Part shown: positions 1 to 19,069 of the stretch, piece after piece
How positions within the stretch are numbered: position 1 is the stretch's first letter
How the letters are laid out: each line of letters starts with the position of its first letter
Assembly: GCA_964634935.1 (NCBI GenBank)
Contig: CAZWJT010000002.1
Span: 138,643-202,642 of the forward strand
Length of the DNA stretch: 64,000 bases
Direction: 5' to 3'
Source of the DNA: an uncultured Planctomycetia bacterium
GTDB lineage: Bacteria; Omnitrophota; Gorgyraeia; Duberdicusellales; Duberdicusellaceae
The notes under the pieces: model-generated
What the model saw: only the letters and a program-made list of their open reading frames with translations
Database searches by the model: none
Told to the model about the DNA's origin: nothing
Program-made: the position numbers and the translations under genes

Positions 1-552
1 AACTTTATCTTCCCCGATGACGATCTTGAGTCTCTTGATATCTTCACGCAGAGTATTTCGTTGCTCTGGGAAGAACGATTAGTCAAAGAACGCATTCGTG
101 AGCTTGACATCCGTGATCCTCTCACTGGACTTTATAGTGAACAGCATATTCATTCAGCATTCATCGCGGCAATGAATCTGGCTTTAGAACGTCATACTCC
201 CTGCGGCTTTATTCTTTTGAGGGTTTACGATTTTCAGTCAACCGATTTGGCAATACCTTCGAGAAAGGTAGAATATTCGTTAAAAAAAGTAAGTGATTTG
301 ATACTTGCTCACCTTGATATTTTTGATAAAGCTGGTCGCATTGGCGACGAACAATTTGCAATTATTGTTCCCAAAAAAAGCAAATCAGCCGTGGAGAAGA
401 AATCGTCCGATATCATCACTGACATCAATGAATTTATTTCTTCAAATACCATAGGTATCCGTTTCTCAGTGGCATCGGCGGTAGTCGAGAGTCCCATTGA
501 TGGCGTAAGTGCAGAGGAGCTTTTGCGTAAAGCGCAGCAAAATCTCCGGTAG
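1..552 (+). CDS. GGDEF-domain protein, C-terminal part (5' end lies upstream of the window); active-site motif degenerate (RIGDEQF instead of RYGGEEF)
   Basis: Frame 1 is open from base 1. The translation contains DPLTGLYSE (GGDEF domain start) and AGRIGDEQFAIIVP at the GG[DE]EF position. No RxxD I-site lies directly upstream. Stop at 550-552. Confidence 0.55.
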   Translation, partial: NFIFPDDDLESLDIFTQSISLLWEERLVKERIRELDIRDPLTGLYSEQHIHSAFIAAMNLALERHTPCGFILLRVYDFQSTDLAIPSRKVEYSLKKVSDLILAHLDIFDKAGRIGDEQFAIIVPKKSKSAVEKKSSDIITDINEFISSNTIGIRFSVASAVVESPIDGVSAEELLRKAQQNLR

Positions 553-558
553 TGTGCC

Positions 559-1005
559 ATGTATCTGAAAAGAAAAATAAATAAACCATTAGGGCAGCTT
601 TTGATTGAGCGGGGTCTTTTAACTACAGTTCAGCTAGAAAAGGCCCTGGGATTACAGCGTGAAAAAGGGGGATTGATCGGTGAGGTTATTATCTCGTTGG
701 GTTTTGTTACTGAAATAGAAATAGCCCACGCCTTGTCGCTGCAATATGGATTTCCTTATTTGCCCCTAGAGAATTACGGTATTTCACCCGAAGCTTTGGC
801 AACAATCCCGCGCCAAGTAGCAGAGCAATACTGCCTGGTTCCTCTTGATAAGGTTGGCAATACACTAATGGTCGCCACCGCTGATCCTTTAAATAGTCAT
901 GCGATCGAAGATATTGAATATTTAAGCGGATGTGCGGTGCAAATTTTTGTCAGCACGGTTTCGGATATTCGGAATGCGATCTCTAAGTACTATGCTCAAT
1001 CATAA
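559..1005 (+). CDS. Standalone MshEN / T2SSE_N domain protein (c-di-GMP-binding N-domain of GspE/MshE type, no ATPase domain)
   Basis: 148 aa. The N-terminus carries two tandem 24-aa motifs matching the MshEN c-di-GMP consensus RLGxxLLxxGLLxxxxLxxxLxxQ: PLGQLLIERGLLTTVQLEKALGLQ, a 5-aa spacer REKGG, then LIGEVIISLGFVTEIEIAHALSLQ. The rest resembles a GspE N-terminal domain (…LVPLDKVGNTLMVATADPLN…). Confidence 0.7.
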   Translation: MYLKRKINKPLGQLLIERGLLTTVQLEKALGLQREKGGLIGEVIISLGFVTEIEIAHALSLQYGFPYLPLENYGISPEALATIPRQVAEQYCLVPLDKVGNTLMVATADPLNSHAIEDIEYLSGCAVQIFVSTVSDIRNAISKYYAQS

Positions 1006-1086
1006 CGGGTGTGAAAGTTTTTTTGTATTCCGGTATTTTCCTTCCATGCCGCCGGTAACGCTTGTTCTAACGGGTGAAGATAGCAG

Positions 1087-2784
1087 ATGGATTTTAAGGA
1101 AAAAATAATTACCGCACTTGAAGAAAGTAAGATTCTCGATAAAGAAAAAATAGAAGAAATTCTTCTTCGCCACAAACAGGAAGGCGGCAGCCTCGTCGAA
1201 ACATTTATTCGCTCAGGGTACATCAACGAGACTGAATTTTTGAGTATTTTATCCGCAAGTCTTTCGATTCCATCCATCGAACTTTCAAAGATTGAAATCG
1301 CGCCTGAGATCATAGCGAGTATTCCAGCACCGTATATCTGGAAGTACAGGGTTATTCCTTTTGGAAAGATAGAAAAAACGCTTACTGTTGCAGTAATTGA
1401 TCCTTTTGAATTATTTGCTTTCGATGATTTAGAACGATTGACAGGCTTTACCTTAAATCCCGTGCTTGCTTCACGTAAAGAAATTGAGGCAGCGTTGAAT
1501 AAATATTATCGTGAGCCCGTCGCTGATGAGATGGAAACATTATTGAATACTATTCCTGAGGGCGGTTCCATTGAAGTAGTAGGGGGGGCACCGGAGGAGA
1601 AGGAAGCGGAGGTCACCGTCCAGGCAATCCAAGAGGGGCCAGTGATCAAATTAACTAATTTTTTACTTGCTCAAGCCGTACAAATGCGCGCTTCAGATGT
1701 TCTTATTGAGCCTCTTGAGAAAAAAATGAGAGTCCGCTATCGAATTGATGGTGTTCTTGAAGAAATAGAGTCTCCGCCGTTCGCTATGTTCCCGTTTATT
1801 GTTTCTCGGATTAAAGTTATGTCAAATCTTGATATTGCGGAGCATCGGCTGCCCCAAGATGGTAGATTTCGTATTAAGCAGCGCGAGAATGACATTGATT
1901 TTCGTGTTTCTATCGTTCCTTCTATTCTTGGTGAAAAAGTTGCCTTGCGCATACTTGATAAAAGTGCTGCCGCGCTCGATATCGAAAAACTCGGATTTCT
2001 TGATGAATCAATAGCGGTTATTAAGAAGATTTCTTCTCGTCCGCACGGTATGATTATTTCCTGTGGACCAACTGGATCCGGGAAGACGACAACCCTTTAT
2101 TCCATACTCAAGCATATTTATTCTCCGACAAAAAATATTATTACAGTCGAGGATCCTGTTGAGTATGAAATGAAAGGGATTAATCAGGTTAACGTGGACA
2201 CTGAAGTCGGGTTAACCTTTGCTTCTTCTCTGCGGGCTATCCTTCGGCAAGATCCCGACATCATCATGGTAGGTGAGATCAGGGATTTTGAGACCGTTGA
2301 CATCGCGATTAAAGCTGCCCTTACGGGCCATCTTGTTCTTTCAACGCTTCATACCACAACCGCTGTTGGATCGTTAATACGTCTCATCAACATGGGAATA
2401 GAACCGTTTTTGATTACTTCATCGTTAATTGGGATTATTGCTCAGCGGCTCTTGCGCAAGCTTTGTGAAAAGTGTAAAGAGCAGTATGTGGTATCAACAG
2501 TTATTCTTGATACTTTGAAGATTCGCGAGAAAAACGTACAATTTTATCGAGCGAAAGGATGCCGAGAATGCAATATGACAGGTTATCGGGGAAGGATTGG
2601 GGTTTGTGAAACATTAGCCGTGAGCGAGCAGTTGCGTGAAAAAATTCTTGCGAATGCCTCCGAGGGTGAAATTTTTGCATTAGCATGTTCACTGGGCATG
2701 AAATCATTCAAGGAAGATGCGCGCCAAAAAGTGATAAGCGGATCAACATCACTGGAAGAAGCCTTGCGGACAGTGGGGGTGTGA
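1087..2784 (+). CDS. pilB: GspE/PilB-family type IV filament assembly ATPase, paralog 1
   Basis: 565 aa. Has an N-terminal T2SSE_N domain, Walker A GPTGSGKTTT, Asp box, His box (TLHTTTAVGS) and a C-terminal tetra-Cys zinc site (CEKCKEQY…CRECNMTGYRGR). Confidence 0.85.
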   Translation: MDFKEKIITALEESKILDKEKIEEILLRHKQEGGSLVETFIRSGYINETEFLSILSASLSIPSIELSKIEIAPEIIASIPAPYIWKYRVIPFGKIEKTLTVAVIDPFELFAFDDLERLTGFTLNPVLASRKEIEAALNKYYREPVADEMETLLNTIPEGGSIEVVGGAPEEKEAEVTVQAIQEGPVIKLTNFLLAQAVQMRASDVLIEPLEKKMRVRYRIDGVLEEIESPPFAMFPFIVSRIKVMSNLDIAEHRLPQDGRFRIKQRENDIDFRVSIVPSILGEKVALRILDKSAAALDIEKLGFLDESIAVIKKISSRPHGMIISCGPTGSGKTTTLYSILKHIYSPTKNIITVEDPVEYEMKGINQVNVDTEVGLTFASSLRAILRQDPDIIMVGEIRDFETVDIAIKAALTGHLVLSTLHTTTAVGSLIRLINMGIEPFLITSSLIGIIAQRLLRKLCEKCKEQYVVSTVILDTLKIREKNVQFYRAKGCRECNMTGYRGRIGVCETLAVSEQLREKILANASEGEIFALACSLGMKSFKEDARQKVISGSTSLEEALRTVGV

Positions 2785-4472
2785 TGAAGAGTTTTAAAGA
2801 GAAGATTCGAGATTTATTGGTGGCAAAAGGAATTCAATTCCATGATGGTCTTTTAAATGACGCAAAGAATTCTAATGATCTGAAAAAGCTTCTGCTTGCG
2901 CAAAACTGGCTTACTGAAACCGAATTTCTCGGTTTTCTCTCGCAGGAGCTGGAGATTCCGTATATCGATATAAAAAAATATACCGTTTCTCCGGAAAATA
3001 CGAGTTATATTCCTGAGGACATAGCGTTTCAATATCGGGTTTTTCCGCTATCTCGGCTTAAAAATTCACTTACGATAGCAACCGCTAATCCGTTAGATGT
3101 CTTGACGCTTGATGACATAAAATTAAAGTTACAGGTTGATTTACAGCTTGTTCTTGCCAATGAGACCGATATTCTCGCTTTGCTCAATAAACTATACAAA
3201 AAAGAAGAGACATTTTCTTCGTTGCTTGCCCAGGCATCGACTGACTCGGATTTTAATGTAGCCCAAGATAAGTCTTCAGAGATTCTCGCGTCTGAAGGAT
3301 TTGACTTGCTGGCTGAAAGTAAAACGGCCCCAATCGTTAAAATCGTTGACCTCTTTGTTTATGAAGCTCTCTCCAAACGGGCGTCAGATATTCACATTGA
3401 ACCTACGGAGTTTGTTCTTAAGGTACGATATCGCATTGACGGTCTTTTGCAAGATGCTTTTGATATCCCACGGAAGAATCAGAATGCCATATTTGCCCGC
3501 TTGAAGATTATGTCGGGATTGAATATTACCGAAACGAAAATTCCACAGGACGGTCGATTTAAGGTGAAAATGCAGAGCCGGGAGGTTGATTTTAGGGTTT
3601 CGTCGTTGCCTACCCGTTACGGAGAAAAATTTGTTCTTCGGGCTCTCGATAAAAGTAACCTTTCTATAGGGCTTGACAAGCTTGGTTTTTCTGATGTCCC
3701 TCGGCAGCTCTTTGAGGCGGCGGTTAAGAAACCCTTTGGGATTATTCTCGTTACCGGACCAACTGGTAGCGGAAAGTCCACGACACTTTACTCCATTGTG
3801 AACTATTTAAATGGTGCCGATCGCCATATTGTGACCATAGAAGATCCGGTTGAATATCAAATACAGGGGTTGACCCAGATTCCTGTCAACGCTGAATTGG
3901 GATTGACTTTCGCGGCAGCTCTTCGCGCGGTACTGCGTCAATCTCCGGATATTATCATGGTTGGTGAAATCCGGGATTCCGAAACCGCCGATATTGCGAT
4001 AAAAGCTTCACTGACCGGAGAGCTTATTTTTTCGACGCTTCACACCAATGATTCCGTTGGAGCTATTATTCGGCTTGCCGATATGGGGATTGAGCCTTTT
4101 CTTTTGGCATCTTCCCTTTTGCTCACCTCTGCGCAGCGACTCTGCCGGAGGATTTGCCCTCACTGTAAGAATCCCAGTAAGCCTCCGGAGTATCTGCTCA
4201 AGAAATTGCAGATTGTTCAGCACGATGCTGTATTTTTTGAAGGGAAAGGATGTGTAGAATGCAATAATACGGGATATCACGGACGCGAAGCGCTCTTGGA
4301 AGTTTTGGCAATCGATGATACAATAAAAGAAATGATTGTGAGGCGAAAATCAGAGCAAGACATACTTGAATATGCTCGGGCAAATCTTCATTTTCGTAGT
4401 TTGCGGGAAGACGGCATTGAAAAATGCCTTCGAGGCGTAACAACCCTTGAAGAAATACTTCGGGTGACTTAG
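2784..4472 (+). CDS. pilB: GspE/PilB-family type IV filament assembly ATPase, paralog 2
   Basis: 562 aa from the ATG at 2784, which overlaps the paralog-1 stop (TGATG). Has T2SSE_N domain, Walker A GPTGSGKSTT, TLHTNDSVGA and a tetra-Cys site CPHCKNP…CVECNNTGYHGR. The ORF-track start at 2685 is an upstream in-frame extension inside paralog 1. Confidence 0.85.
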   Translation: MKSFKEKIRDLLVAKGIQFHDGLLNDAKNSNDLKKLLLAQNWLTETEFLGFLSQELEIPYIDIKKYTVSPENTSYIPEDIAFQYRVFPLSRLKNSLTIATANPLDVLTLDDIKLKLQVDLQLVLANETDILALLNKLYKKEETFSSLLAQASTDSDFNVAQDKSSEILASEGFDLLAESKTAPIVKIVDLFVYEALSKRASDIHIEPTEFVLKVRYRIDGLLQDAFDIPRKNQNAIFARLKIMSGLNITETKIPQDGRFKVKMQSREVDFRVSSLPTRYGEKFVLRALDKSNLSIGLDKLGFSDVPRQLFEAAVKKPFGIILVTGPTGSGKSTTLYSIVNYLNGADRHIVTIEDPVEYQIQGLTQIPVNAELGLTFAAALRAVLRQSPDIIMVGEIRDSETADIAIKASLTGELIFSTLHTNDSVGAIIRLADMGIEPFLLASSLLLTSAQRLCRRICPHCKNPSKPPEYLLKKLQIVQHDAVFFEGKGCVECNNTGYHGREALLEVLAIDDTIKEMIVRRKSEQDILEYARANLHFRSLREDGIEKCLRGVTTLEEILRVT

Positions 4473-4473
4473 T

Positions 4474-5679
4474 ATGGCTCTTTTTGAATATATTGCGAAA
4501 AATCAGGAAGGAAAAGTTTTTAAGGGGCGGGTGGATGAACTTTCCAAAAGCAAGGTCATTGATATACTCCACTCAAAGAACCTCGTTATTATTTCGATTA
4601 GCGATGTTAAGAAAAAACTTTTTGATTTTAAGTTTGCCCAGTCGGTAACCCCTGAAGAAATCGTCATTTTTTGCCGGCAGTTGACGACGCTCATTGATAG
4701 TGGAGTTTCATTAGTCCAGTCGGTTGAGATATTAAATGAACAAACAAAAAACCAAAAACTTCGAGAAATATTATCCCGTGTTTTAACCGATGTCCGTGAG
4801 GGAAATGCATTTCACGCATCACTTGCAAAATTTCCCGCAGTATTTTCTTCTTTCGTCCTCAGTATGATAAAAGCTGGAGAGGCATCGGGGAATCTGCCAG
4901 AAATTTTGGACAGGGTAAGCACATATCTTGAAGAATCACTTTCTTTGCAGCGCAAAGTAAAATCCAGTCTTACGTATCCCGCGGTTGTCATTTGTATGGC
5001 GATTGCTATAACTACTTTTTTGATCGTAAAAGTAATCCCGACCTTTAAAGGAATTTTTGATTCTTTGGGCGGAACCTTGCCGCTTCCTACGCAAATGCTG
5101 TTGAGTCTGAGCGATTTTTTAAGCAGATTTATTTTTCTTTTTCTTGGTATTCTGGTCGCAGCCGGAATCGCGTTCAAGCGTTATCTTCGTACGGATCGGG
5201 GAAAAAAACAATTTGATTTTTTAATTTTGAAGTTGCCTATTATCGGCGATTTATTGAGAAAAGTTGCTATTGCTCAGTTCTGCCGGACATTTTCGACTCT
5301 TGTTCGCAGCGGAGTACCCATTTTGAATACACTGGATATTGTGGGAGCAACTTCCGGCAATAAAATTATTGAAGCGGCGGTTCTTACGGCAAAAAAATCA
5401 GTTCAAGAGGGGGAGCCGCTTTCCGAGCCTCTTGCGAGGACAAACATTTTTCCGATCATGGTCACTCGTATGATTGCAATCGGAGAGAAAACAGGAAAGC
5501 TCCAGGAGATGCTTTCGCGAATCGCCGATTTTTACACTGATGAAGTCAATACTGCGGTAGAGGGTTTAACAAGTATTATTGAACCTCTGATTATCGGCAT
5601 CTTGGGTGTTGTTATCGGAGGTATTGTTATTGCACTCTTTTTGCCGATTCTGAAAATTACCGAATTGGTTGGAGCATAA
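4474..5679 (+). CDS. pilC: PilC/GspF-family inner-membrane platform protein (two T2SSF domains)
   Basis: 401 aa. Duplicated T2SSF domain pattern (…GEASGNLPEILDRV… and …IGEKTGKLQEMLSRIADFY…) with three TM segments. Starts 2 nt after the upstream ATPase stop. Confidence 0.85.
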   Translation: MALFEYIAKNQEGKVFKGRVDELSKSKVIDILHSKNLVIISISDVKKKLFDFKFAQSVTPEEIVIFCRQLTTLIDSGVSLVQSVEILNEQTKNQKLREILSRVLTDVREGNAFHASLAKFPAVFSSFVLSMIKAGEASGNLPEILDRVSTYLEESLSLQRKVKSSLTYPAVVICMAIAITTFLIVKVIPTFKGIFDSLGGTLPLPTQMLLSLSDFLSRFIFLFLGILVAAGIAFKRYLRTDRGKKQFDFLILKLPIIGDLLRKVAIAQFCRTFSTLVRSGVPILNTLDIVGATSGNKIIEAAVLTAKKSVQEGEPLSEPLARTNIFPIMVTRMIAIGEKTGKLQEMLSRIADFYTDEVNTAVEGLTSIIEPLIIGILGVVIGGIVIALFLPILKITELVGA

Positions 5680-5717
5680 AACAGTTCACGAGATATGAGT
5701 TTAGCAGAGGAGGAAGA

Positions 5718-8700
5718 ATGAAAAGAGTTATATTGTTTTGTTTTTTCTTATTCATTACGGCTGGTATTTCCTTTGCTGCTACCGATCGTATTATACGCTA
5801 CGGTGAGCGTGTTGAGCAGTATTATCACGCGGGTGACTATGATGCAGTAATCCAGGTATGCCAAAAGATTCTCAATATCTCAGCACAGAACAATTTTGCT
5901 CGTGACTATATCAATAAAGCCGAAACTAATAAAACTATCCAAGCGGATATCGAGCGTCTCGTGGAGAGTGATAATGTTTTACTGGCTGAAGAAAAAATCA
6001 ATTATCTTTTGCGGGAATCACCAGGTTCTCGCAAATTGCAAAAATTGGAAAAGCAAGTTGCATATGCCAAGAGTAGGCTTCAGAAAAAGCTTTCTCAGGA
6101 AATGTATGGGTTTTCAGTTGAGCGAATCCGTGCATGCATTATGGAAAAGAAATTTGCTCAAGCCCAATCATTGCTCGATGGATTGAAGAAGCGCCATCCG
6201 GAAAATGCCGAAATGCGAACACTCTCAAAAACACTTGCACAGCGCGTTGAACAAGACAAGCAGGAAAAATTCATTGCTCAGCGTTCATCAGATATCGCCA
6301 GTATCACCGAGCGTATTGATGCGGCTTTGCGCAACAATGAATTTTCCAGTGCGCGAGGTGCTCTTACCCAGCTTACCCAGGCATATCCTTCGGATTCTCT
6401 CGTGAATGCTCGCGCTGTTTCTCTTGAGCAAAAGATTAAGTTATCAGAGGCAAGCTTTCTGAAAGAAAAAGAAAGAAACGAAAAGGCTGAGTTGCTCAAA
6501 GAGCAAAAATTCACCCAAGAAATGGCGGATATCGAAACAATGATGCAAAAGGAAAACTATACCGACGCGGAACAGCGTTTGCTTATGCTCAAGAAAAATT
6601 ATCCACAGAAGGGCGCCGAAGTGGACAACCAGTTTACACAGTTGGAGCAGATTCAGAAATTATCTCGGGAGGTTAATTCCTTGCTTCTTTCAGAGTTATT
6701 TGATCAAGCTCTCGAGCGCACGCGAGTTTCACGAGAATTCTATGGTGGTAACGCGCATATTCTTGAACTTCTGAATAATTGGGACAGGAAAATAATCACT
6801 TCAAAGGTACGCGCATTAGAATCGTTAGAGAAAAGGAAAGTAGAAGAGGGGAAAAAGCAATTTTTCACCGATATCGGAACGCTGCGTATTTTGATTGATG
6901 AAAAGAAATTTGCTCAAGCCCAATCATTGCTCGATGGATTGAAGAAGCGCCATCCGGAAAATGCCGAAATGCGAACACTCTCAAAAACACTTGCACAGCG
7001 CGTTGAACAAGACAAGCAGGAAAAATTCATTGCTCAGCGTTCATCAGATATCGCCAGTATCACCGAGCGTATTGATGCGGCGATAGAAAAATCAGATTTT
7101 ACACGAGCATTCGAAGCAACGGAGGAGTTGCGCAAGAGCTATCCTGGCGATTCTTTGGTATCCAAAACGGCAATTTCTCTTGATAAAAAAATCTCTTCCC
7201 AGAGAACACGCTATCTCAGTGAGGTACAGAAGAAAGAAAGAAGCGAGCAGGAAAAGACGCTTGCGGCACAGAAAGAAGACCTACGGAATTCTACCGCGGG
7301 TATGGAGGATGCAATTCGAAAGGCTGATTTCGATGAAGCAAAAAAGATTCTATCGGGCTTAAAAGAAAGACATCCCTCAGCAAAGGAAATTCAGGAAACT
7401 GCAGTTTCTTTCGGAAATAAGATAAAGACCGCCGAAGAAGCCTTCCTGCGCAAAAACCAGCAGAAAGAAAAACAACTTTTTACTGCGACTAAAGAAAGCG
7501 ATGCATTAACGATAAGCCAAACGGTTCTCAATCATATAGAAGCAGCTGACTTTTCAGCCGCCCGCGCTGCTCTTCACAGTTATAAAGCAAAATACTTGAA
7601 AGAGCAGGATGCCCAAAAGAAAGTTTTGCTTCTTGAGGAAAAAATCAAGACAGCTGAGCATCTCCATCAGAACCAACAAGAAGAAATTCGGAAAAAATTC
7701 ACCCAAGAAATGGCGGATATCGAAACAATGATGCAAAAGGAAAACTATACCGACGCGGAACAGCGTTTGCTTATGCTCAAGAAAAATTATCCACAGAAGG
7801 GCGCCGAAGTGGAAAAGGTCCTACAAAGAGTAGAATCGGCGCTCGAAAAAGTTAAGATAGAACAGGAAAAGAAAAGTGCCGCAGAAAAACGCCGCCAGCA
7901 GGAACGAGATCTCATTTTCGCTCAGAGATTAGAAGGAATCACCACGCTTATTACACAACAGAAGTTTGCTGAGGCTAAGAATAGTTTGCTTTCGCTGCAG
8001 AAAGAGTTTCCGGAGTACCAGCAAATCAAAGAATTTTTAAAAGATATTGATTCCAGAATTCAACAGCATAATGTCGAACAAAAAAAGATTGCCGCACGCA
8101 AGGAAAACACCGAAGACAATGTCATGCAGGAGCTTGCTGTGCGCTTTAACGCTGCTTATTCAAAGAAGCAATACGTTGAAGCTCAGAATATACTCACACA
8201 CTATAAAAGTACTTTTCCCGCATACAAAAAAATTCATTCATTTACCGAAGAAAAATTTGCTTTGCTCCGAAAAGTTCGCGCTGAAGAAAATTTAAAACAG
8301 AACCTAAAAACTCAAAAATCTTTTGGTCATGCAACGTTAGCAAAGGATGAGTTGGTTGCTCAAGTCGAGGTGCTTATTCATGATGAATATTTAGCACGGA
8401 ATGATTTCGAAGGCGCGCGGATGGTCCTGGGTGAATTCGACAGTAATTTTTCCATCGATCCATATCTCGAGCAAAAAATAAAATCGATTGGACGTACGAT
8501 TAACCAAGCAGAAGAGCGCCATAAATCATTAGCAGGTATTTCGACTACGGGTTATGGCGATGAAGTTCTTGATGGGAAAATCGCGAAACTTGAAATGTTC
8601 ATTCAATTAGGCGATTTTATCAACGCCCGCAATCTTTCTGATGAACTTTTACGAACTTATCCGGAGAATATTCAAGTGAGAACCCTTGCGGAAACGTTAA

Positions 8701-8813
8701 ATCGGAAGCTCAAAAAGACACGAAAACAAGATCCAGCGCGAACGCCGATTCCTGAAAATGCGGTAAGCAAAGAAAAAAAGAATCCCCCGGCGTATCTCGA
8801 GAAACGCAGTTAA
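5718..8813 (+). CDS. Secreted 1031-aa helical repeat protein (TPR-like ~70-aa modules with recurring x-F-x-x-A-x-x-x-L-x-x-L-x-x-x-[YFH]P motif); function unknown
   Basis: Signal peptide MKRVILFCFFLFITAGISFA. K/E-rich. Recurrent module, e.g. KKFAQAQSLLDGLKKRHPENAEM, ADFDEAKKILSGLKERHPSAKEI, QKFAEAKNSLLSLQKEFPEYQQI, KQYVEAQNILTHYKSTFPAYKKI. Contains perfect internal nucleotide duplications. Confidence 0.6.
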   Translation: MKRVILFCFFLFITAGISFAATDRIIRYGERVEQYYHAGDYDAVIQVCQKILNISAQNNFARDYINKAETNKTIQADIERLVESDNVLLAEEKINYLLRESPGSRKLQKLEKQVAYAKSRLQKKLSQEMYGFSVERIRACIMEKKFAQAQSLLDGLKKRHPENAEMRTLSKTLAQRVEQDKQEKFIAQRSSDIASITERIDAALRNNEFSSARGALTQLTQAYPSDSLVNARAVSLEQKIKLSEASFLKEKERNEKAELLKEQKFTQEMADIETMMQKENYTDAEQRLLMLKKNYPQKGAEVDNQFTQLEQIQKLSREVNSLLLSELFDQALERTRVSREFYGGNAHILELLNNWDRKIITSKVRALESLEKRKVEEGKKQFFTDIGTLRILIDEKKFAQAQSLLDGLKKRHPENAEMRTLSKTLAQRVEQDKQEKFIAQRSSDIASITERIDAAIEKSDFTRAFEATEELRKSYPGDSLVSKTAISLDKKISSQRTRYLSEVQKKERSEQEKTLAAQKEDLRNSTAGMEDAIRKADFDEAKKILSGLKERHPSAKEIQETAVSFGNKIKTAEEAFLRKNQQKEKQLFTATKESDALTISQTVLNHIEAADFSAARAALHSYKAKYLKEQDAQKKVLLLEEKIKTAEHLHQNQQEEIRKKFTQEMADIETMMQKENYTDAEQRLLMLKKNYPQKGAEVEKVLQRVESALEKVKIEQEKKSAAEKRRQQERDLIFAQRLEGITTLITQQKFAEAKNSLLSLQKEFPEYQQIKEFLKDIDSRIQQHNVEQKKIAARKENTEDNVMQELAVRFNAAYSKKQYVEAQNILTHYKSTFPAYKKIHSFTEEKFALLRKVRAEENLKQNLKTQKSFGHATLAKDELVAQVEVLIHDEYLARNDFEGARMVLGEFDSNFSIDPYLEQKIKSIGRTINQAEERHKSLAGISTTGYGDEVLDGKIAKLEMFIQLGDFINARNLSDELLRTYPENIQVRTLAETLNRKLKKTRKQDPARTPIPENAVSKEKKNPPAYLEKRS
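6144..6325 (+). repeat. 182-bp perfect direct repeat, copy 1 (copy 2 at 6900-7081), in frame within the repeat-protein gene
   Basis: I read the two stretches as base-for-base identical (gaaaagaaatttgctcaagcccaatcattgctcgatgg … gagcgtattgatgcggc). They encode the identical peptide EKKFAQAQSLLDGLKKRHPENAEMRTLSKTLAQRVEQDKQEKFIAQRSSDIASITERIDAA. Confidence 0.85.
6505..6625 (+). repeat. 121-bp perfect direct repeat, copy 1 (copy 2 at 7693-7813), in frame within the repeat-protein gene
   Basis: Identical run aaaaattcacccaagaaatggcggatatcgaaacaatgatgcaaaagg … gggcgccgaagtgga. Encodes KFTQEMADIETMMQKENYTDAEQRLLMLKKNYPQKGAEV twice. Confidence 0.85.
6900..7081 (+). repeat. 182-bp perfect direct repeat, copy 2
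   Basis: Identical to 6144-6325 by my reading. Confidence 0.85.
7693..7813 (+). repeat. 121-bp perfect direct repeat, copy 2
   Basis: Identical to 6505-6625 by my reading. Confidence 0.85.
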
Positions 8814-8826
8814 ATAGTGTGAACAG

Positions 8827-10059
8827 ATGATTCGGAATATTAAAATACTTGCGATGATTATGGCTGGCGGCAGAGGAGAGCGTCTTTATCCTTTGACTTT
8901 AGACCGAACGAAGCCTTCTGTCCCTTTTGCCGGTAAGTACCGGATTATTGATTTTGTGCTCAGTAATTTTATTAATTCGGGAATATATTCAATTTATGTT
9001 TTAGTCCAGTATAAATCGCAATCACTTATTGAACATATTCGCAGTGGATGGAAGCGGCAGGGGATGCTTTCGAGTCATTTCATTACGGTCGTTCCTCCTC
9101 AGATGCGGCGGGGACAGAAGGAGTGGTATCGGGGAACAGCCGACTCAATTTATCAGAATATCAACCTTATTCTTGATTTTAAACCTGATTTAGTCGCTGT
9201 TTTCGGAGGCGATCATATCTATCGAATGAACATTAATGATATGATACACGCGCATATAACAAAAAAAGCTGACGTTACGGTAGCCTGTATGCCATGTTGT
9301 AAAGAGCAAGCTGGGGCTTTTGGGATTGTCGATATTGATGCGAATGCGATGGTCAAGAGATTTCGCGAAAAACCGAAAAATCTCAGTCTGATCCGAGGAC
9401 AAGAAGTTTTCATCTCGATGGGAAATTATATTTTTTCAACGAATGCGTTGATTGAATCGTTACGTGCGGATGATGCATACAAAAATTCTTCCCATGATTT
9501 TGGGAAAGATGTGATTCCTTCCCTTGTTGCACAAAAAAAACGTGTATTTTCATACGATTTTTCGAAAAATAAAGTCCCGGGCTTAAAGCCCTATGAAAAG
9601 AAGGAATATTGGCAAGACGTTGGGACGATTAAAAGTTTCTGGCAATCGAATATGGAAATACTTGGAGAAAACCCGGTGTTCGATCTCGACAATCGGCAAT
9701 GGCCAATCTATGCATCATCGCTTGATTGTCCGCCAGCAAAAATAGTGAAAAGTGAAATTGTAAATTCTTGTCTTGCAGAAGGATGCATTTTATCCAATGC
9801 ATTCGTCAAAAATTCTATCTTGGGAAGATCGGTCATTCTTGAGGCCGATGTTGAAATTGAAAACTCGATCATTATGGATTTTTGTCTTATCAAGAAAGGA
9901 GCAAAAATCCGCAACGCAATTATTGACCGTTTCAACGTGATTCCCGCTCATACTCGGATCGGTTATAACCGACTTCAGGATGCCCGCGCGTATCATTACG
10001 ATGTTGAATCGGGCATTGTTGTTGTAAAGCGCGGAGCCCGCCAGGTATTGTATTGGTAA
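8827..10059 (+). CDS. glgC: Glucose-1-phosphate adenylyltransferase
   Basis: N-terminal AMIMAGGRGERLYPLTLDRTKPSVPFAGKYRIIDFVLSNFINSGI (nucleotidyltransferase G-loop and GlgC signature). C-terminal left-handed beta-helix region. 410 aa. Confidence 0.85.
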   Translation: MIRNIKILAMIMAGGRGERLYPLTLDRTKPSVPFAGKYRIIDFVLSNFINSGIYSIYVLVQYKSQSLIEHIRSGWKRQGMLSSHFITVVPPQMRRGQKEWYRGTADSIYQNINLILDFKPDLVAVFGGDHIYRMNINDMIHAHITKKADVTVACMPCCKEQAGAFGIVDIDANAMVKRFREKPKNLSLIRGQEVFISMGNYIFSTNALIESLRADDAYKNSSHDFGKDVIPSLVAQKKRVFSYDFSKNKVPGLKPYEKKEYWQDVGTIKSFWQSNMEILGENPVFDLDNRQWPIYASSLDCPPAKIVKSEIVNSCLAEGCILSNAFVKNSILGRSVILEADVEIENSIIMDFCLIKKGAKIRNAIIDRFNVIPAHTRIGYNRLQDARAYHYDVESGIVVVKRGARQVLYW

Positions 10060-10077
10060 TTTGTTTTTGTATCTTCA

Positions 10078-11955
10078 ATGCGGAAACGAACAAGTGAGTT
10101 TGATGTCATTGTTGTAGGAGCAGGCCATGCGGGCATTGAAGCAGCTTCTGCTGTTTCGCGCCTGAAGTGTTCCGTGCTTCTTATCACAATGAGCATTGAT
10201 AACATCGGAAAAATATCCTGTAATCCTGCGGTTGGCGGGGTTGCAAAATCGCACTTGGTCCGGGAGGTAGATATTTTCGGCGGAGCCATCGCTCGGCTTG
10301 CTGATTTGTCCGCAACCCAATATCGAGTGTTGAATCAGAGTAAAGGTAAAGCGGTCTGGGCTCTGCGCGTTCAAATCGACCGCCACCTGTATAATCGCCA
10401 GGCAAAAGATCTCATCCTGTCCTTGCCCAATCTCCGCGTATTTGAAACTGAGGTAGAAGAAATTTTGACGCTGAGAAACAGAGTATACGGGGTGTTAACT
10501 CAAGCAGGGGAATTTTTTTCATCTCGGGTTATTCTCTGTCCCGGAACATTTCTTGATGGACTCGTACATATCGGTTTTCGGCATTTTCCTCAAGGACGAT
10601 TAGGAGAGCCAGCTTCACAGGGTCTTTTTCGCTCTCTAAAAAAACACGGATTTTTACTGAAACATTTTAAAACCGGCACATGTCCACGGATAGATTTCCG
10701 CACGCTTGATTTTTCCCGGATGAACGAACAAAAGCCAGATTATCAAGCGGGTCCGTTTTCGATATATACCGATGGCATTCCAAATAATCAGTTGAGTTGT
10801 TTTATTACCGCTACGAATCAAAAAACACACGCGCTTGTAAAACGTAATTTGCGGTATTCTCCTCTTTACCAAGGCATTATTAAGGGTACAAGCGTGCGTT
10901 ACTGTCCTTCATTGGAGGATAAGGTAGTGAAGTTTGACGCACGAAAAAGCCATCATGTTTTCATTGAGCCAGAAGGTTTTTCTACATTTGAAGCCTACCC
11001 GAACGGCATTTCGAATTCTCTTCCATTTGATGTGCAATGTGAGCTTGTTCACTCCATTCCAGGCATGGAGAAGGCAACTATCCTAAAACCCGGATACGGG
11101 ATAGAACATGCGGTCATTGATGCCCGCGTGCTCTATCCAACTCTTGAAGCAAAAAAAATCCGAGGCCTCTTTTTTGCCGGGCAGATCAACGGAACAACTG
11201 GATATGAAGAGGCAGCAGCTCAGGGGTTAGTTGCAGGGGTAAACGCTGCTTTGCAGATTCATAAAAAACCGCCTTTTATTTTGGGTCGCCGTGAAAGCTT
11301 TATTGGTCTTTTGATTGATGAACTTATTGAAAAAGGCACCAATGAACCATACCGAATGTTTACCTCGCGCTCCGAACTACGGATGACACTAAGAGAAAGT
11401 AATGCTGACAGGCGACTGTATCGCATGTCTTTTCAATACGGACTTATTGACGAAAAAATATTTCATCGAATTGCTGAGAAGGAAAAAAGAATTCAGGAGT
11501 CAATACGGCAGTTAAAAACCATCAAGATTCATCCAACGCCAGACGTAAACCAAAAACTTCTCCAACTCAACACAAGTTCAATTCATCAAACTATTTGTCT
11601 TGGTGATCTATTGAAGCGGCCGCAAATCGTTTTTTCCCACCTTTCCCATTTTTCCTATATTTCTAAGCTTACTCCCCGGGAAGAAGATGAGGTTGAGATT
11701 GAGATTAAATACGAAGGGTTTTTAAAGCGGGAATTACATCAACTCGCAGAACTGAAAGATTTGGATCGGGTAAAATTGCCGTATATTCCTCAAGTTTCCG
11801 GGCTTTCTCGTGAAATTATTGAAAAGCTTAAAACTTTTCAGCCTAGAACAATCGGACAGGCTCTGCAAATTCCCGGATTCACCGTTGCCGCAGCGCTCAT
11901 TCTTCTTAATTATTTTCGCTCAAAAAAACATTCCAAACAATCCCTGGAAAAATAA
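10078..11955 (+). CDS. mnmG: tRNA uridine 5-carboxymethylaminomethyl modification enzyme MnmG (GidA)
   Basis: FDVIVVGAGHAGIEAA FAD-binding motif, 625 aa, MnmG-typical length and conserved blocks (…GPRYCPSIEDK-like SVRYCPSLEDKVVKF…). Confidence 0.9.
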   Translation: MRKRTSEFDVIVVGAGHAGIEAASAVSRLKCSVLLITMSIDNIGKISCNPAVGGVAKSHLVREVDIFGGAIARLADLSATQYRVLNQSKGKAVWALRVQIDRHLYNRQAKDLILSLPNLRVFETEVEEILTLRNRVYGVLTQAGEFFSSRVILCPGTFLDGLVHIGFRHFPQGRLGEPASQGLFRSLKKHGFLLKHFKTGTCPRIDFRTLDFSRMNEQKPDYQAGPFSIYTDGIPNNQLSCFITATNQKTHALVKRNLRYSPLYQGIIKGTSVRYCPSLEDKVVKFDARKSHHVFIEPEGFSTFEAYPNGISNSLPFDVQCELVHSIPGMEKATILKPGYGIEHAVIDARVLYPTLEAKKIRGLFFAGQINGTTGYEEAAAQGLVAGVNAALQIHKKPPFILGRRESFIGLLIDELIEKGTNEPYRMFTSRSELRMTLRESNADRRLYRMSFQYGLIDEKIFHRIAEKEKRIQESIRQLKTIKIHPTPDVNQKLLQLNTSSIHQTICLGDLLKRPQIVFSHLSHFSYISKLTPREEDEVEIEIKYEGFLKRELHQLAELKDLDRVKLPYIPQVSGLSREIIEKLKTFQPRTIGQALQIPGFTVAAALILLNYFRSKKHSKQSLEK

Positions 11956-11968
11956 AAACATTTTACTC

Positions 11969-13090
11969 TTACGCTTGAGCTAAAGTGATAATTTCTTGGG
12001 CAGTGCGCATGCAGGCGTTTTCTGGAAGGAGTTCTTTTCGGAGATCGTGAAGCGCACCACGCAGAGCGGCGGTTTGCTGATGATCACTCAACAAACTGCA
12101 TGCTTTCTGGGCGATACGCTCAGGAGTCGCATCATTTTGAATGAACTCCGGAAATATATTTTTTTGTGCGATGATATTTGGCATGGCAATAAAGGGCACA
12201 CGAACGAGAAATTTCAAAATGTGCCAGCTCAGCGCATTGAGTTTGTAGAATACAATGGAGGGAACACCTAAGATTGCCAATTCCATAGTGACGGTGCCAG
12301 ATGCAGTAAGCGCAAGATCGCATGCCTTCATGTGTTCGTAATGACGGGTCGGGATGCAAACAGTATCGTTTGCTTTTAATATTGAGAATAATTCATCAGG
12401 AAGTTGTGGATGCTGGAAGACTATAAACCGGGCGCGAATTTTTTTTGCGATAATTTCTTTGGCAGCATGCAGCATCGGAAGATGATGTATCACCTCTTTT
12501 TTCCGAGATCCGGGTAGAAGTCCGATAACTTTTTCATCCGAAGCTAGCGACAGGGTTTTCTTTATTTCCGATACGTCAGCTGATGTCGGGAGTATTTCAA
12601 GTAAGGGATGGCCGACATAGACAACGGATATTTTGGCCTCCCGGTAGAGTTTTTCTTCAAACGGGAAAATAACCGCGATTTTGTCCACATATCTTTTAAT
12701 CTGGATGATCCTTTTTTTACGCCAAGCCCAAACCTGTGGGCTGATAAAATAGAATACCTTATATCCTTTTTTCTTGAGAATTTTACTTAGGCGTAAGTTA
12801 AAATCAGGGTAATCAACCAAAACAACAACGCTTGGTTTTATTTCATCGATCGACTTTGTGATCGAATGAAATGCTGCAAGAACTTTATGAATATAGCGTC
12901 CGACTTCCCAGATCCCTGTTACCGCAAGGGCAGTGAGTGGAAAGACACAATGCGTTGCTTGCTCAAGATGGTTCCCTCCGGCGGAGAAGATTCCGATGTC
13001 TGGTTTGATGGTTTTTAAGTGCGTTGCCACTCGGGCAGCATAGAGGTCGCCCGATGGATCACCCGCGACAAAAAAGACAGAATCAGACAT
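11969..13090 (-). CDS. lpxB: Lipid-A-disaccharide synthase
   Basis: 373 aa. N-terminus MSDSVFFVAGDPSGDLYAARVATHLK matches the LpxB start (…AGEPSGD…). GT-B fold pattern throughout. Confidence 0.85.
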   Translation of the reverse strand: MSDSVFFVAGDPSGDLYAARVATHLKTIKPDIGIFSAGGNHLEQATHCVFPLTALAVTGIWEVGRYIHKVLAAFHSITKSIDEIKPSVVVLVDYPDFNLRLSKILKKKGYKVFYFISPQVWAWRKKRIIQIKRYVDKIAVIFPFEEKLYREAKISVVYVGHPLLEILPTSADVSEIKKTLSLASDEKVIGLLPGSRKKEVIHHLPMLHAAKEIIAKKIRARFIVFQHPQLPDELFSILKANDTVCIPTRHYEHMKACDLALTASGTVTMELAILGVPSIVFYKLNALSWHILKFLVRVPFIAMPNIIAQKNIFPEFIQNDATPERIAQKACSLLSDHQQTAALRGALHDLRKELLPENACMRTAQEIITLAQA

Positions 13091-14006
13091 GCGTTTTTGC
13101 GATGTTACGGTCTATTTCCAGGGCAATACGCAAAGCATCAAGTATCGCTTCGGTTTGTGAAAAATCAGGATCCTTTTTTTCAGATTCGGAAAGAAATGCA
13201 GCAATTTCTTCCTTTAAGGGTTCGTCTTTCGGGATGTCAAGCCGCTGCTGTACGATGCCGGCATCGGTTTTCGTGAAGATTTCGGCTTCTTGCTTCGCGT
13301 AATTGACTGAGATATAAGTTTTAGGAAGAAAAATGCGAATCTTGCGCAGTGAATCCCGGGATATTCGGGAAGCGGAAATGTCAGCAATGCAGCCGTTTTG
13401 GAATGAAATCCGCGCATTCGCAATGTCGGTTGTATTCGAAAGCACCTGGACTCCTACCGCATCGATCCGTTTTACTTTTGATTGGACAAGCGACAAAATA
13501 ATATCCAGATCGTGGATCATAAGATCCAATACGACACTGATATCAAGTGAGCGATTTGGAAAGGGACTCAGTCGGTCGCATTCGATAAACTTTGGTTTTT
13601 TAGCGATCTCGCGGATGCGTTTGAATGCCGGATTGAATCGTTCAACGTGCCCAACCATTAACACAACTCGATTTTTTTTTGCCAGATTGAGCAAAATACG
13701 TGCGTTGCTAAGGTTGTTGCTTAGGGGTTTTTCTACTAAGCAATTCACGCGGTGACTGAGAAAAAAACGAGCTATCGGAAAATGGAGCAAGGTGGGAGTA
13801 GCAATACTGATTGCATCGGGTTTCAGCTTCATTAGCTCTTGATAATTTGTTGTGGCGAGAGCGATGTTTGGGAAGAGACACTTTAGTTCACTGAGTCGAT
13901 TTATGTCTGTGTCACAAATACCGACGATTTCTGCATTCGGCAACGCAGCGTAAATTTTGGTATGAAGAGAACCAAGTTTTCCGAGACCAACTATCGCGAC
14001 TCTCAT
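13083..14006 (-). CDS. Gfo/Idh/MocA-family NAD-dependent oxidoreductase, possibly GnnA-like (UDP-GlcNAc 3-dehydrogenase of the GlcN3N lipid A pathway)
   Basis: MRVAIVGLGKLGSLHTKIYAALPNAEIVGICD Rossmann N-terminus and a Gfo/Idh/MocA C-domain. Overlaps the lpxB start by 8 nt (same operon). The GnnA call is a context inference only. Confidence 0.5.
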   Translation of the reverse strand: MRVAIVGLGKLGSLHTKIYAALPNAEIVGICDTDINRLSELKCLFPNIALATTNYQELMKLKPDAISIATPTLLHFPIARFFLSHRVNCLVEKPLSNNLSNARILLNLAKKNRVVLMVGHVERFNPAFKRIREIAKKPKFIECDRLSPFPNRSLDISVVLDLMIHDLDIILSLVQSKVKRIDAVGVQVLSNTTDIANARISFQNGCIADISASRISRDSLRKIRIFLPKTYISVNYAKQEAEIFTKTDAGIVQQRLDIPKDEPLKEEIAAFLSESEKKDPDFSQTEAILDALRIALEIDRNIAKTHV

Positions 14007-16034: not shown

Positions 16035-16874
16035 TTGGCATTACCAGAAGAATTAACCAAATTATTAGAGGCAGGGGTTCATTTTGGCCATCAGGCCAAA
16101 CGCTGGAATCCAAAAATGCGGCGGTTTATCTTTGCCAAGCGCAGTGGTATCTATATAATCGATCTCGAGAAAACACTTGAAAAGCTCAATGAAGCTTTAA
16201 AGTTTATCGAAGGGATTGTTGTCAAGAACGGAACTATTCTTTTTGTTGGCACCAAAAAACAAGCAAAAAACATAACCAAGGAGTTAGCCGAGACTTCCGG
16301 GATGCCCTATGTTATTGAACGCTGGGTGGGAGGTCTTTTAACTAATTTTTCAACAATAAAGTCGCGAATTGATCGCTACAATGCAATGCTAAAGCAGCGC
16401 GAAGAAGGCCGGTTTGAAAATTTTGTCAAAAAAGAAGTAGTCATGTTTAACCGTGCGCTTGCGCAGATGGATAAGACCTTTGCTGGATTGCGTACTGTTC
16501 AAGGCTTGCCGGATGCGTTATTTGTTTTTGATCCCAAAAAAGAAATTCTGGCAGTTCGTGAAGCAATGAAGCTTGGTATTCCGATCATCGCTCTTGTCGA
16601 TACTGACGGGGATCCAGACATTCTTGACTACCCCATACCAGGCAACGATGACGCTATTAAATCCATACGCATCATCGCTTCTTTTGTCGCCGATGTTATT
16701 CAAAAAGGGCGAGCGCAGGTTCGTGAAGAGACGCAACGGAAAAATGAAGCGATGGCAGCGCAAGAGGAAACAGTGAAGCTGGACGAAAAACAGGCTGATG
16801 TTTTTGAAGAGATTGAGGAGAAAATTATCGAAGAAGTGAGCGGGAAAGAATTTCGCAAGCCAAAGAAAAGCTAA
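16035..16874 (+). CDS. rpsB: 30S ribosomal protein S2
   Basis: ALPEELTKLLEAGVHFGHQAKRWNPKMRRFIF… TTG start codon at 16035, with an AGGAGG RBS (16025-16030) 4 nt upstream. Confidence 0.95.
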   Translation: MALPEELTKLLEAGVHFGHQAKRWNPKMRRFIFAKRSGIYIIDLEKTLEKLNEALKFIEGIVVKNGTILFVGTKKQAKNITKELAETSGMPYVIERWVGGLLTNFSTIKSRIDRYNAMLKQREEGRFENFVKKEVVMFNRALAQMDKTFAGLRTVQGLPDALFVFDPKKEILAVREAMKLGIPIIALVDTDGDPDILDYPIPGNDDAIKSIRIIASFVADVIQKGRAQVREETQRKNEAMAAQEETVKLDEKQADVFEEIEEKIIEEVSGKEFRKPKKS

Positions 16875-16880
16875 GGAGGC

Positions 16881-17414
16881 ATGCGCATGCTTGATCAAAT
16901 TAAAAAACTGAGAGATCTTACCGGGTTAGGCGTAAATGATTGTAAAAGCGCCCTGGACGAAGCAAAGGGTAATATTGAGCAGGCGCTCGCTGTTTTACGC
17001 AAAAAAGGGGTCGAAATTGCCGCAAAAAAATCGACCAAAGCAACGTTGCAGGGGGTGATAGAAGGCTATATTCATTTTTCATCGAGTATCGGCGCGCTTG
17101 TTGAAATAAACTGTCAGACTGACTTTGTTGCAAAAACAGATGATTTTAAGAAATTTGCGCGTGATATCGCCATGCATGTTGCTGCATGTAATCCTGCATA
17201 TCTTACTGCTGATGAGATACCCCTTGAGCTCATTGAGCAGTTAAAAAATCAAAAAGAAGCATTTATTGAGTCAAATTGCCTTCTCGATCAGCCTTTTGTG
17301 AAAGACCAGTCAATGAAGATTCGGGACTATTTGAATGCAGTAATAGCGAAAACCGGAGAAAAAATCTGTATTCGTAGATTTTCGAGGTTTGCAATAGGCG
17401 AAAATGTCGAATAA
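16881..17414 (+). CDS. tsf: Elongation factor Ts (short form, 177 aa)
   Basis: [34 protein letters not shown] (UBA-like N-domain) then a single core domain. Immediately downstream of rpsB. Confidence 0.85.
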
Positions 17415-18114
17415 GCCAAAAAGAGTTTTATTCAAACTGAGCGGTGAAGTATTCCAAGATAAGAACGCGAGTATATCGCCCGTAGTTTGTGTTTGGTTGG
17501 CAAAAGAAATAAAAGCCGCCGTTCAATCAGGGGTACAGATTGCTTTAGTTGTGGGGGGCGGTAATATATTTCGCGGATTTCCTCGTTCCAAGGAGTTTGG
17601 GATGGATAGGGCGGTCGCTGATTATATGGGGATGCTTGCGACTATTTTAAATGGCTTGGCGCTTCAGGATACGCTTGAAAAACAAGGAATACCCACCAGA
17701 GTTCTTACTGCTATTCAAATGCATCAGATTGCTGAACCGTATATTCGGCGCAGAGCAATACGCCATCTTGAAAAAGGACGAGTTGTTATTTTTGTTGCCG
17801 GAACAGGGAACCCCTACTTTACGACTGATACCGCCGCTGTTTTGAGGGCAGTAGAGATTCGAGCCGACATCATTTTAAAGGGAACCAAAGTTGACGGTGT
17901 CTATACCGATGACCCATTGAAAAACAAAAAAGCCCGTAAGTATTCACATGTTTCGTATATTGAGGTTCTTGAGAAAGGCTTGCGCATTATGGATTCAACG
18001 GCGATCAGTCTTTGTATGGATAATAAAATGCCAATCATGGTCTTTGATGTAACCAAGGCGGGAAATTTGAAAAAAGCTGTTTTGGGGCATCCGATTGGAA
18101 CATTAATTCAATAA
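17404..18114 (+). CDS. pyrH: UMP kinase
   Basis: [12 protein letters not shown]…[10 protein letters not shown]…[20 protein letters not shown], conserved PyrH motifs. Overlaps tsf by 11 nt. Confidence 0.9.
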
Positions 18115-18124
18115 GAGGAGCAGT

Positions 18125-18682: not shown

Positions 18683-18697
18683 TGCTACCATTTTTCC

Positions 18698-18777
18698 GCC
18701 GCGGTGGCGGAATTGGCAGACGCGCATGGCTTAGAACCATGTCCGTGAGGGTGGGAGTTCAAATCTCCCCCGCGGCA
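18698..18777 (+). tRNA. tRNA-Leu (anticodon TAG), long variable arm
   Basis: Acceptor stem GCCGCGG/CCGCGGC. Anticodon stem CATGG / loop CTTAGAA / CCATG. Long variable arm. T-arm GGGAGTTCAAATCTCCC. CCA not encoded. Confidence 0.8.
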
Positions 18778-18780
18778 CAT

Positions 18781-18807: not shown

Positions 18808-18841
18808 TATCGCGTTCATGTTCTTTGTGTGACATATCCAT

Positions 18842-19029: not shown

Positions 19030-19069
19030 TATGATATACGAAAGCGCCATAGGGAGGTTTGTGATTGAT

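Follow-up and report, generated by a model that had tools for sequence, protein, structure and literature searches.

Which filament machine do six consecutive genes with two extension ATPases and no pilin belong to, and how might this machine be controlled? The question is raised by a 64-kb stretch of an Omnitrophota genome (contig CAZWJT010000002.1), which in its entirety is called the window in the following. Omnitrophota are ultra-small, possibly predatory or parasitic bacteria. At positions 1–8813 of the window, the genes for a degenerate GGDEF protein, a free MshEN domain—predicted to be a receptor for cyclic di-GMP (c-di-GMP)—two PilB-family ATPases (PilB1 and PilB2), the platform protein PilC, and a 1031-residue tetratricopeptide repeat (TPR) protein follow each other on the + strand. 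An earlier note on this DNA had offered two explanations: either the remaining components of the machine lie elsewhere in the genome, or the genes form a pared-down motor/platform set that, together with the repeat protein, has a function not described so far. The comparison with related genomes favors the former, as relatives carry pilin, PilM/PilO, and PilT genes in or beside the same operon. Positions 1–5679 are probably the cytoplasmic motor/platform operon of an ordinary Omnitrophota type IVa pilus, detached from the genes for the other parts. What sets the operon apart is its regulatory equipment, which is kept across the phylum and suggests control of the motors in trans.

Gene content of the operon

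The listing of open reading frames (ORFs) and the Pfam domains confirm the six consecutive + strand genes together with the domains that the earlier note had assigned to them. The first gene (1–552, +) is cut by the window start and contributes the C-terminal 183 codons of the GGDEF protein (Pfam GGDEF, E = 5.9e-14). It is followed by the free MshEN (GSPII) protein of 148 residues (559–1005, +), which consists of the MshEN domain only (PF05157, 70 bits), and by the two ATPases: PilB1 with 565 residues (1087–2784, +; Pfam T2SSE with 449 bits plus MshEN) and PilB2 with 562 residues (2784–4472, +; MshEN plus T2SSE with 437 bits). The ATG of PilB2 overlaps the stop codon of PilB1 by one base (TGATG); the mechanically called ORF, which begins at 2685, is overextended, and PilB2 orthologs in relatives are called at ~562 residues, in agreement with a start at 2784. 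Judged from this arrangement, PilB1 and PilB2 appear translationally coupled. PilC, the inner-membrane platform protein of 401 residues (4474–5679, +), displays both repeats of the T2SSF domain (224 bits); an exact look-up of its sequence brought up no record. The TPR/helical-repeat protein of 1031 residues (5718–8813, +), with TPR matches in Pfam and a signal peptide-like N terminus, adjoins the module and is not counted as its member.

No further pilus part could be found around these genes. Among the ORFs of 120 residues or more in the 64 kb, Pfam matched no N_methyl, Peptidase_A24, PilM/N/O, or Secretin domain and no ATPase of PilT size, and a six-frame scan of the window for the prepilin motif gave 0 sites. 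The remaining 55 kb of the window encode housekeeping and envelope proteins according to Pfam. The upstream flank was read on the Logan contig L001, which bears the identical 148-residue gene; the 10 kb that precede this gene there, reaching back ~9.4 kb from the window start, carry housekeeping genes and no pilus genes. In total, ~74 kb around the operon are readable, and from ~10 kb upstream to ~55 kb downstream of the free MshEN gene there is no pilin, PilD, PilMNOPQ, or PilT. The absence of these genes, as described by the earlier note, is thus borne out for the readable sequence, and the canonical cluster immediately upstream, which that note had considered, gives way to housekeeping genes.

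Conservation across Omnitrophota

A scan of the GTDB species genomes yielded 538 candidate loci, of which the best-scoring 80 were taken with 10-kb flanks—a choice that is biased to closer relatives. ORFs in these loci were called by a greedy longest-ORF rule and labeled by their best blastp match, the window proteins were mapped onto them by blastp, and only loci with enough contig were counted. Several of the metagenome-assembled genome (MAG) records bear loose taxonomy labels. The locus L014 on the complete chromosome CP070797.1 was left out of use, as N-masked stretches break up its operon; a 1173-residue "PilB1–PilB2 fusion" in L025 was rejected, too, because it arises from a masked run of N that is translated as a stretch of X.

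In 78 species-level relatives, the gene order is kept: GAF-GGDEF, an occasional PilT, an MshEN-only protein of 145–151 residues, PilB1, PilB2, an occasional REC-HD-GYP protein, and PilC. The GGDEF protein is found upstream of the MshEN gene in 70/72 loci with room, PilB1 directly downstream of it in 67/67, PilB2 after PilB1 in 51/53, and PilC in 38/40. The REC-HD-GYP protein, whose HD, HHE, and GYP motifs are all intact, sits between PilB2 and PilC in 21 of the 40 loci with room. A 355-residue ATPase lies between the GGDEF and MshEN genes in 12/72 and is a true PilT, scoring 474–483 bits with TIGR01420 versus a cut-off of 319 bits. Of the six genes in the window, five are hence strongly syntenic across 78 species, and only the 1031-residue gene is not. 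The free MshEN protein itself has more than 900 homologs of ~149 residues, and nearly all of those with a source name come from Omnitrophota MAGs. Of ten short proteins that represent MshEN clusters, only one bears a name with a taxonomy—again Omnitrophota.

Two more distant loci help to delimit the core of the operon. L090 encodes a REC protein, an MshEN-only protein, two successive PilBs, and PilC, with a pilin nearby. L091 (GCA_029263055.1, 7090–16447) encodes a cyclase with an intact RYGGDEF signature in the position of the degenerate GGDEF protein, an MshEN-only protein, a single PilB, PilC, PilS/R-like genes—a PAS histidine kinase and a sigma-54 response regulator—and one or more pilins. 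Because of these arrangements, the conserved core is, by gene order, a regulator, the free MshEN protein, one or two PilBs, and PilC. A local circuit of cyclase, receptor, and motor as the ancestral form is plausible, and L091 might possibly reflect the state before PilB duplication and GGDEF decay.

In the lineages with the HD-GYP protein, mreBCD-pbp2-rodA and an rRNA operon flank the motor operon, again without pilins. The locus L004 illustrates this surrounding: mreBCD-pbp2-rodA together with a radical-SAM gene stands ahead of its motor operon, and a 16S-tRNA-tRNA-23S rRNA operon (16563–20450) follows directly. A similar ORF-poor stretch after PilC is seen in L018, L030, L043, L063, L066, and L072.

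The machine: probably a type IVa pilus

For both ATPases, the PilB model TIGR02538 is the best one (606.9 bits for PilB1 and 583.1 bits for PilB2; equivalog cut-off 675.65 bits), and both are filed as PilB-family proteins rather than as equivalogs. The GspE model TIGR02533 gives 582.8 and 569.3 bits (cut-off 630.25 bits). With 431.8 and 426.7 bits for the TfpB model NF053534, both proteins stay far below the cut-off of 850 bits, which rules out TfpB orthology for either. Their best relatives in the PDB are the PilBs of Geobacter and Myxococcus and the PilF of Thermus, with 494 bits between PilB1 and Geobacter PilB. For the platform protein, the NCBIfam PilC models reach 392 and 377 bits versus 365 bits for GspF, all of them below their cut-offs.

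The relatives also show what such an operon is connected to. In 13/28 relatives with room, a prepilin—a canonical major pilin of the MKKGFTLVEIMIVVAIIALLAAIAIPNL type—is encoded directly 3′ of PilC, and this applies to L009 and L065, the nearest two of those relatives whose sequence extends beyond PilC. In L009, the pilin is followed by PilM (PF11104), a 185-residue gene without assignment, PilO, and a PilP-like protein with a T2SSB domain. Stand-alone pilM-N-O-P-secretin operons occur in the Omnitrophota loci L087 and L088. According to published TXSScan surveys, nearly all Omnitrophota possess type IVa pili (PMC10066038).

Since pilin and PilM/PilO genes follow PilC in relatives and separate pilMNOPQ-secretin operons exist, we consider a detached type IVa motor operon the likely identity of the window genes, and the evidence favors a location of the pilins, PilMNOPQ-secretin, PilD, and PilT elsewhere in the source genome. 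The statement of the earlier note that the arrangement differs from described type IV pilus loci is hence to be divided: it holds for the regulatory extras and fails for the machine, whose PilB and PilC—as well as PilT and pilin of the relatives—are ordinary.

Several neighbors of the pilus genes in relatives deserve mention. In L009, a gene for a PaaX-like regulator with a Cas2-like fold sits between the major pilin and pilM (16149–16997). L087 bears a cluster of A/V-type-like ATPase subunits (1–4400) ~5 kb from its pilMNOPQ genes (10001–13951); this fits a report that, in Omnitrophota, nonrespiratory ATPases are encoded close to genes of type IVa pili (PMC10066038). Right after the major pilin, large membrane proteins of the PMT/PMT_2 (GT-C) type with TPRs are encoded in L024 (15866–17935) and L077 (16266–19974), and similar ones are found 3′ of the pilin in L035, L054, and L078; they are unrelated to the TPR protein of the window. 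Their domains suggest a role in pilin glycosylation.

The free MshEN protein as predicted c-di-GMP receptor

The free protein carries two 24-residue MshEN motifs (residues 10–33 and 39–62) that are separated by a 5-residue linker, and it matches 21/22 of the constrained motif positions. With NF053729—the NCBIfam model of the 53-residue c-di-GMP motif, with a cut-off of 38 bits—it scores 56.6–58.4 bits. The AlphaFold2 model (predicted local distance difference test score of 90) consists of a four-helix N-subdomain followed by an α/β C-subdomain, and its top Foldseek match is the complex of MshEN and c-di-GMP (5HTL; E = 1e-11, template modeling (TM) score 0.82–0.87, root-mean-square deviation 2.1 Å). 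No other gene of the operon is as well conserved as that of the free domain: 30 homologs align with a mean column identity of 77%, and the identity within the family amounts to 69% versus 52% and 44% for the N-domains of PilB1 and PilB2, respectively. Both motifs are kept in 96/120 homologs, as judged by the relaxed pattern of Wang 2016 with the first position left free. Upstream of the motifs, an invariant K9 precedes motif 1 and a conserved K36 precedes motif 2. In an alignment, the "KPLG" start of the first motif recurs in GSPII-C of Thermus PilF, a domain that binds c-di-GMP (PMC12002112). Motifs and modeled fold make the 148-residue protein a predicted c-di-GMP receptor.

The free domain, the PilB1 N-domains, and the PilB2 N-domains form three distinct groups with ~32–36% identity between them. 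To the N-domain of Geobacter PilB, the free domain is ~40% identical, and a hidden Markov model of the free domain gives 133 bits for this protein and on average 108 and 100 bits for the N-domains of PilB1 and PilB2. No single paralog is thereby singled out as the source of the free domain, as the N-domains of the relatives score about like Geobacter PilB. Some relatives of the free MshEN protein have 214–219 residues with duplicated N-subdomains and three to four motif copies (P0004, P0006, and P0007), and the library of representatives includes proteins of 1000–1345 residues with up to seven MshEN stretches (among them P0143–P0150).

Two tandem ATPases

PilB1 and PilB2 share 41% identity and form consistent ortholog groups. 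In 69 PilB1 orthologs, none of the catalytic boxes (Walker A, Asp box, Walker B, and His box) varies, nor does the Zn tetracysteine. The same is true for 56 PilB2 orthologs, except for the first His of the His box: this residue is Gln in 46/56 and Glu in 10/56 of the PilB2 proteins (Glu in the window) versus His in 69/69 of the PilB1 proteins. The two ATPases may divide their labor.

Both window ATPases bear the Pfam MshEN (GSPII) domain; with NF053729, PilB1 reaches 26.9 bits and PilB2 gives no match. Over the phylum as a whole, the helical pattern persists in the N-domains of the PilBs, but the motif glycines are lost (G3 to T/S, G10 to K), and the relaxed pattern with free first position finds zero matches in 68/69 PilB1 and 52/56 PilB2 proteins.

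A degenerate GGDEF protein

The full GGDEF protein can be read on the Logan contig L001 (8663–9994). It comprises 443 residues with two N-terminal hydrophobic, presumably transmembrane, helices, a GAF domain, and the GGDEF domain. Its signature is GDEQF in the window and noncanonical in 75/76 orthologs (e.g., GDDEF, GDNEF, or SDDEF), with GGDEF in 1/76. At the I-site—RxxD, five residues upstream—DIFD is found in the window protein and [ST]E[IV]D in the consensus, with Arg at the first position in 8/76. Judged by these residues, cyclase activity and a role as I-site receptor are both improbable, and the protein is most likely a sensor or scaffold rather than a source of c-di-GMP. Pfam matched PilZ or EAL domains neither among the proteins that the operon encodes nor in the window's ORFs of at least 120 residues.

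An orphan gene in the place of the pilin

The TPR gene begins 38 bp after PilC on the same strand and occupies the slot that the major pilin has in the closest relatives. Its 1031-residue product matched only itself among 5.8 billion proteins, and blastp found no match in any of 86 loci. Because it has no homolog in the database or in the loci of relatives, we place it outside the module: it is, as far as homology tells, a lineage-specific orphan without a conserved link to the pilus genes. Inside the gene there are two direct repeats, a perfect one of 182 nt (6144–6325 and 6900–7081) and a perfect or near-perfect one of 124 nt (6505–6628 and 7693–7816), indicating a recent intragenic duplication. 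The region of the gene further shows a strong skew of A over T.

Weighing of alternative explanations

Several points weigh against a type IVa motor operon that is switched in trans by the free MshEN protein. PilB1 and PilB2 stay below the NCBIfam equivalog cut-off for PilB. None of the other pilus parts lies in the ~74 kb of the source genome that were read, and a search for PilM—which needs shared 5-residue words—gave 21 matches, none of them from the 266,689-bp source contig. The Arg that stacks on guanine is replaced at the first position of both motifs of the free protein, by Pro or Gln in motif 1 (Pro in the window, Gln in most homologs) and by Leu in motif 2; the relaxed motif of Wang 2016 allows [RKPN] here and fits the Pro of the window, not Gln or Leu. 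GSPII-A of PilF fails to bind c-di-GMP in spite of its near-consensus motif (PMC12002112). The PilB N termini of some relatives pass the NF053729 cut-off, namely, those of L004 (61.9 bits for PilB1 and 45.4 bits for PilB2) and L019 (46.3 bits for PilB1); a receptor that acts only in trans may therefore fail as a phylum-wide rule. Finally, both c-di-GMP binding by the free protein and its action in trans are predictions.

Against this background, the regulatory claims of the earlier note fare differently. The degenerate GGDEF signature is confirmed and extends to nearly all orthologs, and the c-di-GMP motif of the free MshEN protein proved intact, with both motifs present and 58.4 bits for NF053729, while binding itself is predicted. 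That the ATPases lack this motif is correct for the window (26.9 bits and no match versus a cut-off of 38 bits) and too general for the phylum, given L004 and L019. The proposed trans-acting c-di-GMP switch on a two-ATPase motor is upheld in part: it agrees with the pattern of motifs and degenerate GGDEF proteins and is weakened by those relatives whose PilBs pass the cut-off.

As to the machine, the operon could instead encode the GspE and GspF of a type II secretion system. The scores leave some room for this, since GspE and GspF are only 14–27 bits behind PilB and PilC and all of these models stay below their equivalog cut-offs; in L009, the pilin that follows PilC also has a weak match to GspG. 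The best models and PDB matches are nevertheless PilB, PilF, and PilC, a bona fide PilT is part of the operon in 12/72 relatives, PilM_2, PilO, and a secretin with PilQ-like context are found in relatives, and no GspC, GspL, or GspM was seen, so that a secretion system appears very improbable. We give equally little credence to a pilin-less set of two ATPases and platform that cooperates with the secreted 1031-residue protein in a way not described before, for example, in the export or assembly of this protein—the second explanation of the earlier note. It would account for the lack of pilin, PilD, PilMNOPQ, and PilT genes in the 64-kb window and the readable upstream flank, for the PilM search that recovered none from the source contig, and for the TPR gene lying so close behind PilC on the same strand. 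Yet, the TPR protein is an orphan that none of the related loci encodes, although they have almost always kept the other five genes, and its perfect internal DNA repeats are typical of a fast-evolving lineage-specific gene. Relatives put pilA, PilM/PilO, and PilT in or beside the operon—with a pilin after PilC in 13/28, PilT in 12/72, and PilM and PilO in L009—and type IVa pili are reportedly the rule in the phylum (PMC10066038).

A more serious alternative concerns the free MshEN protein, which might be a structural adaptor without c-di-GMP sensing: a detached N1/GSPII domain that bridges the PilBs to PilM/PilC or competes for their docking there, with its motifs conserved for maintenance of the fold. 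The missing Arg at the first position of both motifs, the catalytically dead GGDEF protein in 75/76 orthologs, and the binding of GSPII domains to PilM (PMC12002112) all speak for such an adaptor. On the other side, the remaining ligand-contacting positions—both glycines, the Leu triads, and the terminal Gln—are kept in 96/120 homologs, and the PilB N-domains, which have the same fold, lost exactly the Gly positions. The free protein also exceeds the cut-off of the curated c-di-GMP motif model, roughly every second relative has an intact HD-GYP phosphodiesterase in its operon, and one distant relative (L091) encodes an intact GGDEF cyclase. We therefore regard a mere adaptor as rather unlikely and retain the predicted c-di-GMP receptor at a detached type IVa motor operon.

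Proposed mechanism

In the mechanism that we propose, c-di-GMP would be made elsewhere in the cell and read by the free MshEN protein. As a detached N1/GSPII domain, this protein would then act in trans on the PilB N-domains and/or on PilM–PilC—an interaction that we infer—and thereby license the engagement of the PilB1/PilB2 motor and the extension of the pilus. The membrane-anchored GAF–pseudo-GGDEF protein may serve as sensor or scaffold. In the many relatives with a REC-HD-GYP protein in the operon, the latter could degrade c-di-GMP locally and reset the signal.

A bolder version is conceivable, which we put forward only tentatively and hold for doubtful as it stands. Here, canonical PilB1 and His-box variant PilB2 would form an obligate pair that drives pilus extension, either as a hetero-oligomer or as sequential motors. 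Its engagement with the platform would be gated in trans by the free MshEN receptor, which the GAF–pseudo-GGDEF protein would position and REC-HD-GYP would reset. This would amount to a self-contained local c-di-GMP circuit on a two-motor pilus.

Comparison with known systems

With the pilB-pilT-pilC(-pilA) core of type IVa pili—as in Myxococcus xanthus, Geobacter, and Thermus (PilF)—the operon shares a PilB with GSPII/MshEN N-domain, Zn tetracysteine, and all ATPase boxes, as well as PilC; in relatives, PilT, PilA, and PilMNOPQ in or beside the operon complete this likeness. It differs in the separate MshEN polypeptide, which is predicted to be c-di-GMP competent, in the two tandem PilBs, and in the detachment of pilin, PilT, and PilMNOPQ. 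The N-domain of Vibrio cholerae MshE (5HTL) resembles the free protein in its fold (TM score 0.82–0.87), its two 24-residue motifs with 5-residue linker, and its passing of NF053729. Here, however, the domain is not fused to an ATPase, the first Arg of the motifs is changed to Pro/Gln and Leu, and binding is predicted. Thermus thermophilus PilF likewise has several GSPII/MshEN domains per motor, of which some bind c-di-GMP and some do not. In PilF, three GSPII domains stand in tandem in one chain, whereas here one binder-like domain is separate and each ATPase bears one eroded domain. The N-terminal GSPII region of PilF docks to PilM (PMC12002112).

A regulatory parallel is the FimX–PilZ–PilB system of Xanthomonas and Pseudomonas, where c-di-GMP input likewise acts in trans through a small adaptor on a degenerate PilB N-domain and involves a degenerate-GGDEF protein (PMC8389850; PMC11656802). 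In the operon described here, there is no PilZ or EAL domain, the predicted binder is MshEN, and the GGDEF protein is membrane anchored and carries GAF; the likeness is thus best seen as a functional analogy without homology of the adaptors. Two extension-type ATPases at one type IVa pilus are also known from PilB and TfpB of Acinetobacter baylyi (PMC11656802), in contrast to which the window bears no TfpB ortholog, its two genes are adjacent and apparently coupled, and one of them has the His-box substitution.

Other features of the window

Apart from the pilus genes, two regions of the window stand out. A 602-residue protein (57098–58906, +) has FliG_M and FliG_C domains in its C-terminal third only, and its neighbors are a LysM protein, a hybrid histidine kinase-REC protein, an Alginate_exp porin, and a REC protein; there are no other flagellar genes in the 64 kb. 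Two fused genes of lipopolysaccharide biosynthesis are found at 47681–49591 and 49588–51660, combining a lipid A acyltransferase with an ELM1-like domain and a GT4 glycosyltransferase with a GT9 heptosyltransferase. Promoter and terminator scans of positions 1–10500 gave no excess over shuffled controls.

Concluding remarks

Each on its own, type IVa pili of Omnitrophota, MshEN receptors, control of PilB by c-di-GMP in trans, and dual extension motors are already known. What appears new is their phylum-wide combination as pseudo-GGDEF protein, free MshEN protein, and tandem PilB1/PilB2 with a His-box variant; the literature that was searched—on Omnitrophota together with PilB, pili, or c-di-GMP, and on stand-alone MshEN—does not describe this operon. 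It enlarges the picture of how type IVa pili may be regulated in Omnitrophota, which are thought to attach to hosts by means of these pili (PMC10066038), and reveals no new kind of machine. How c-di-GMP and the N1/GSPII domain of PilB control the engagement of extension motors is still unresolved according to a review (PMC11656802). A naturally split N1 domain beside two motors offers a clean system in which ligand sensing can be separated from ATPase function.

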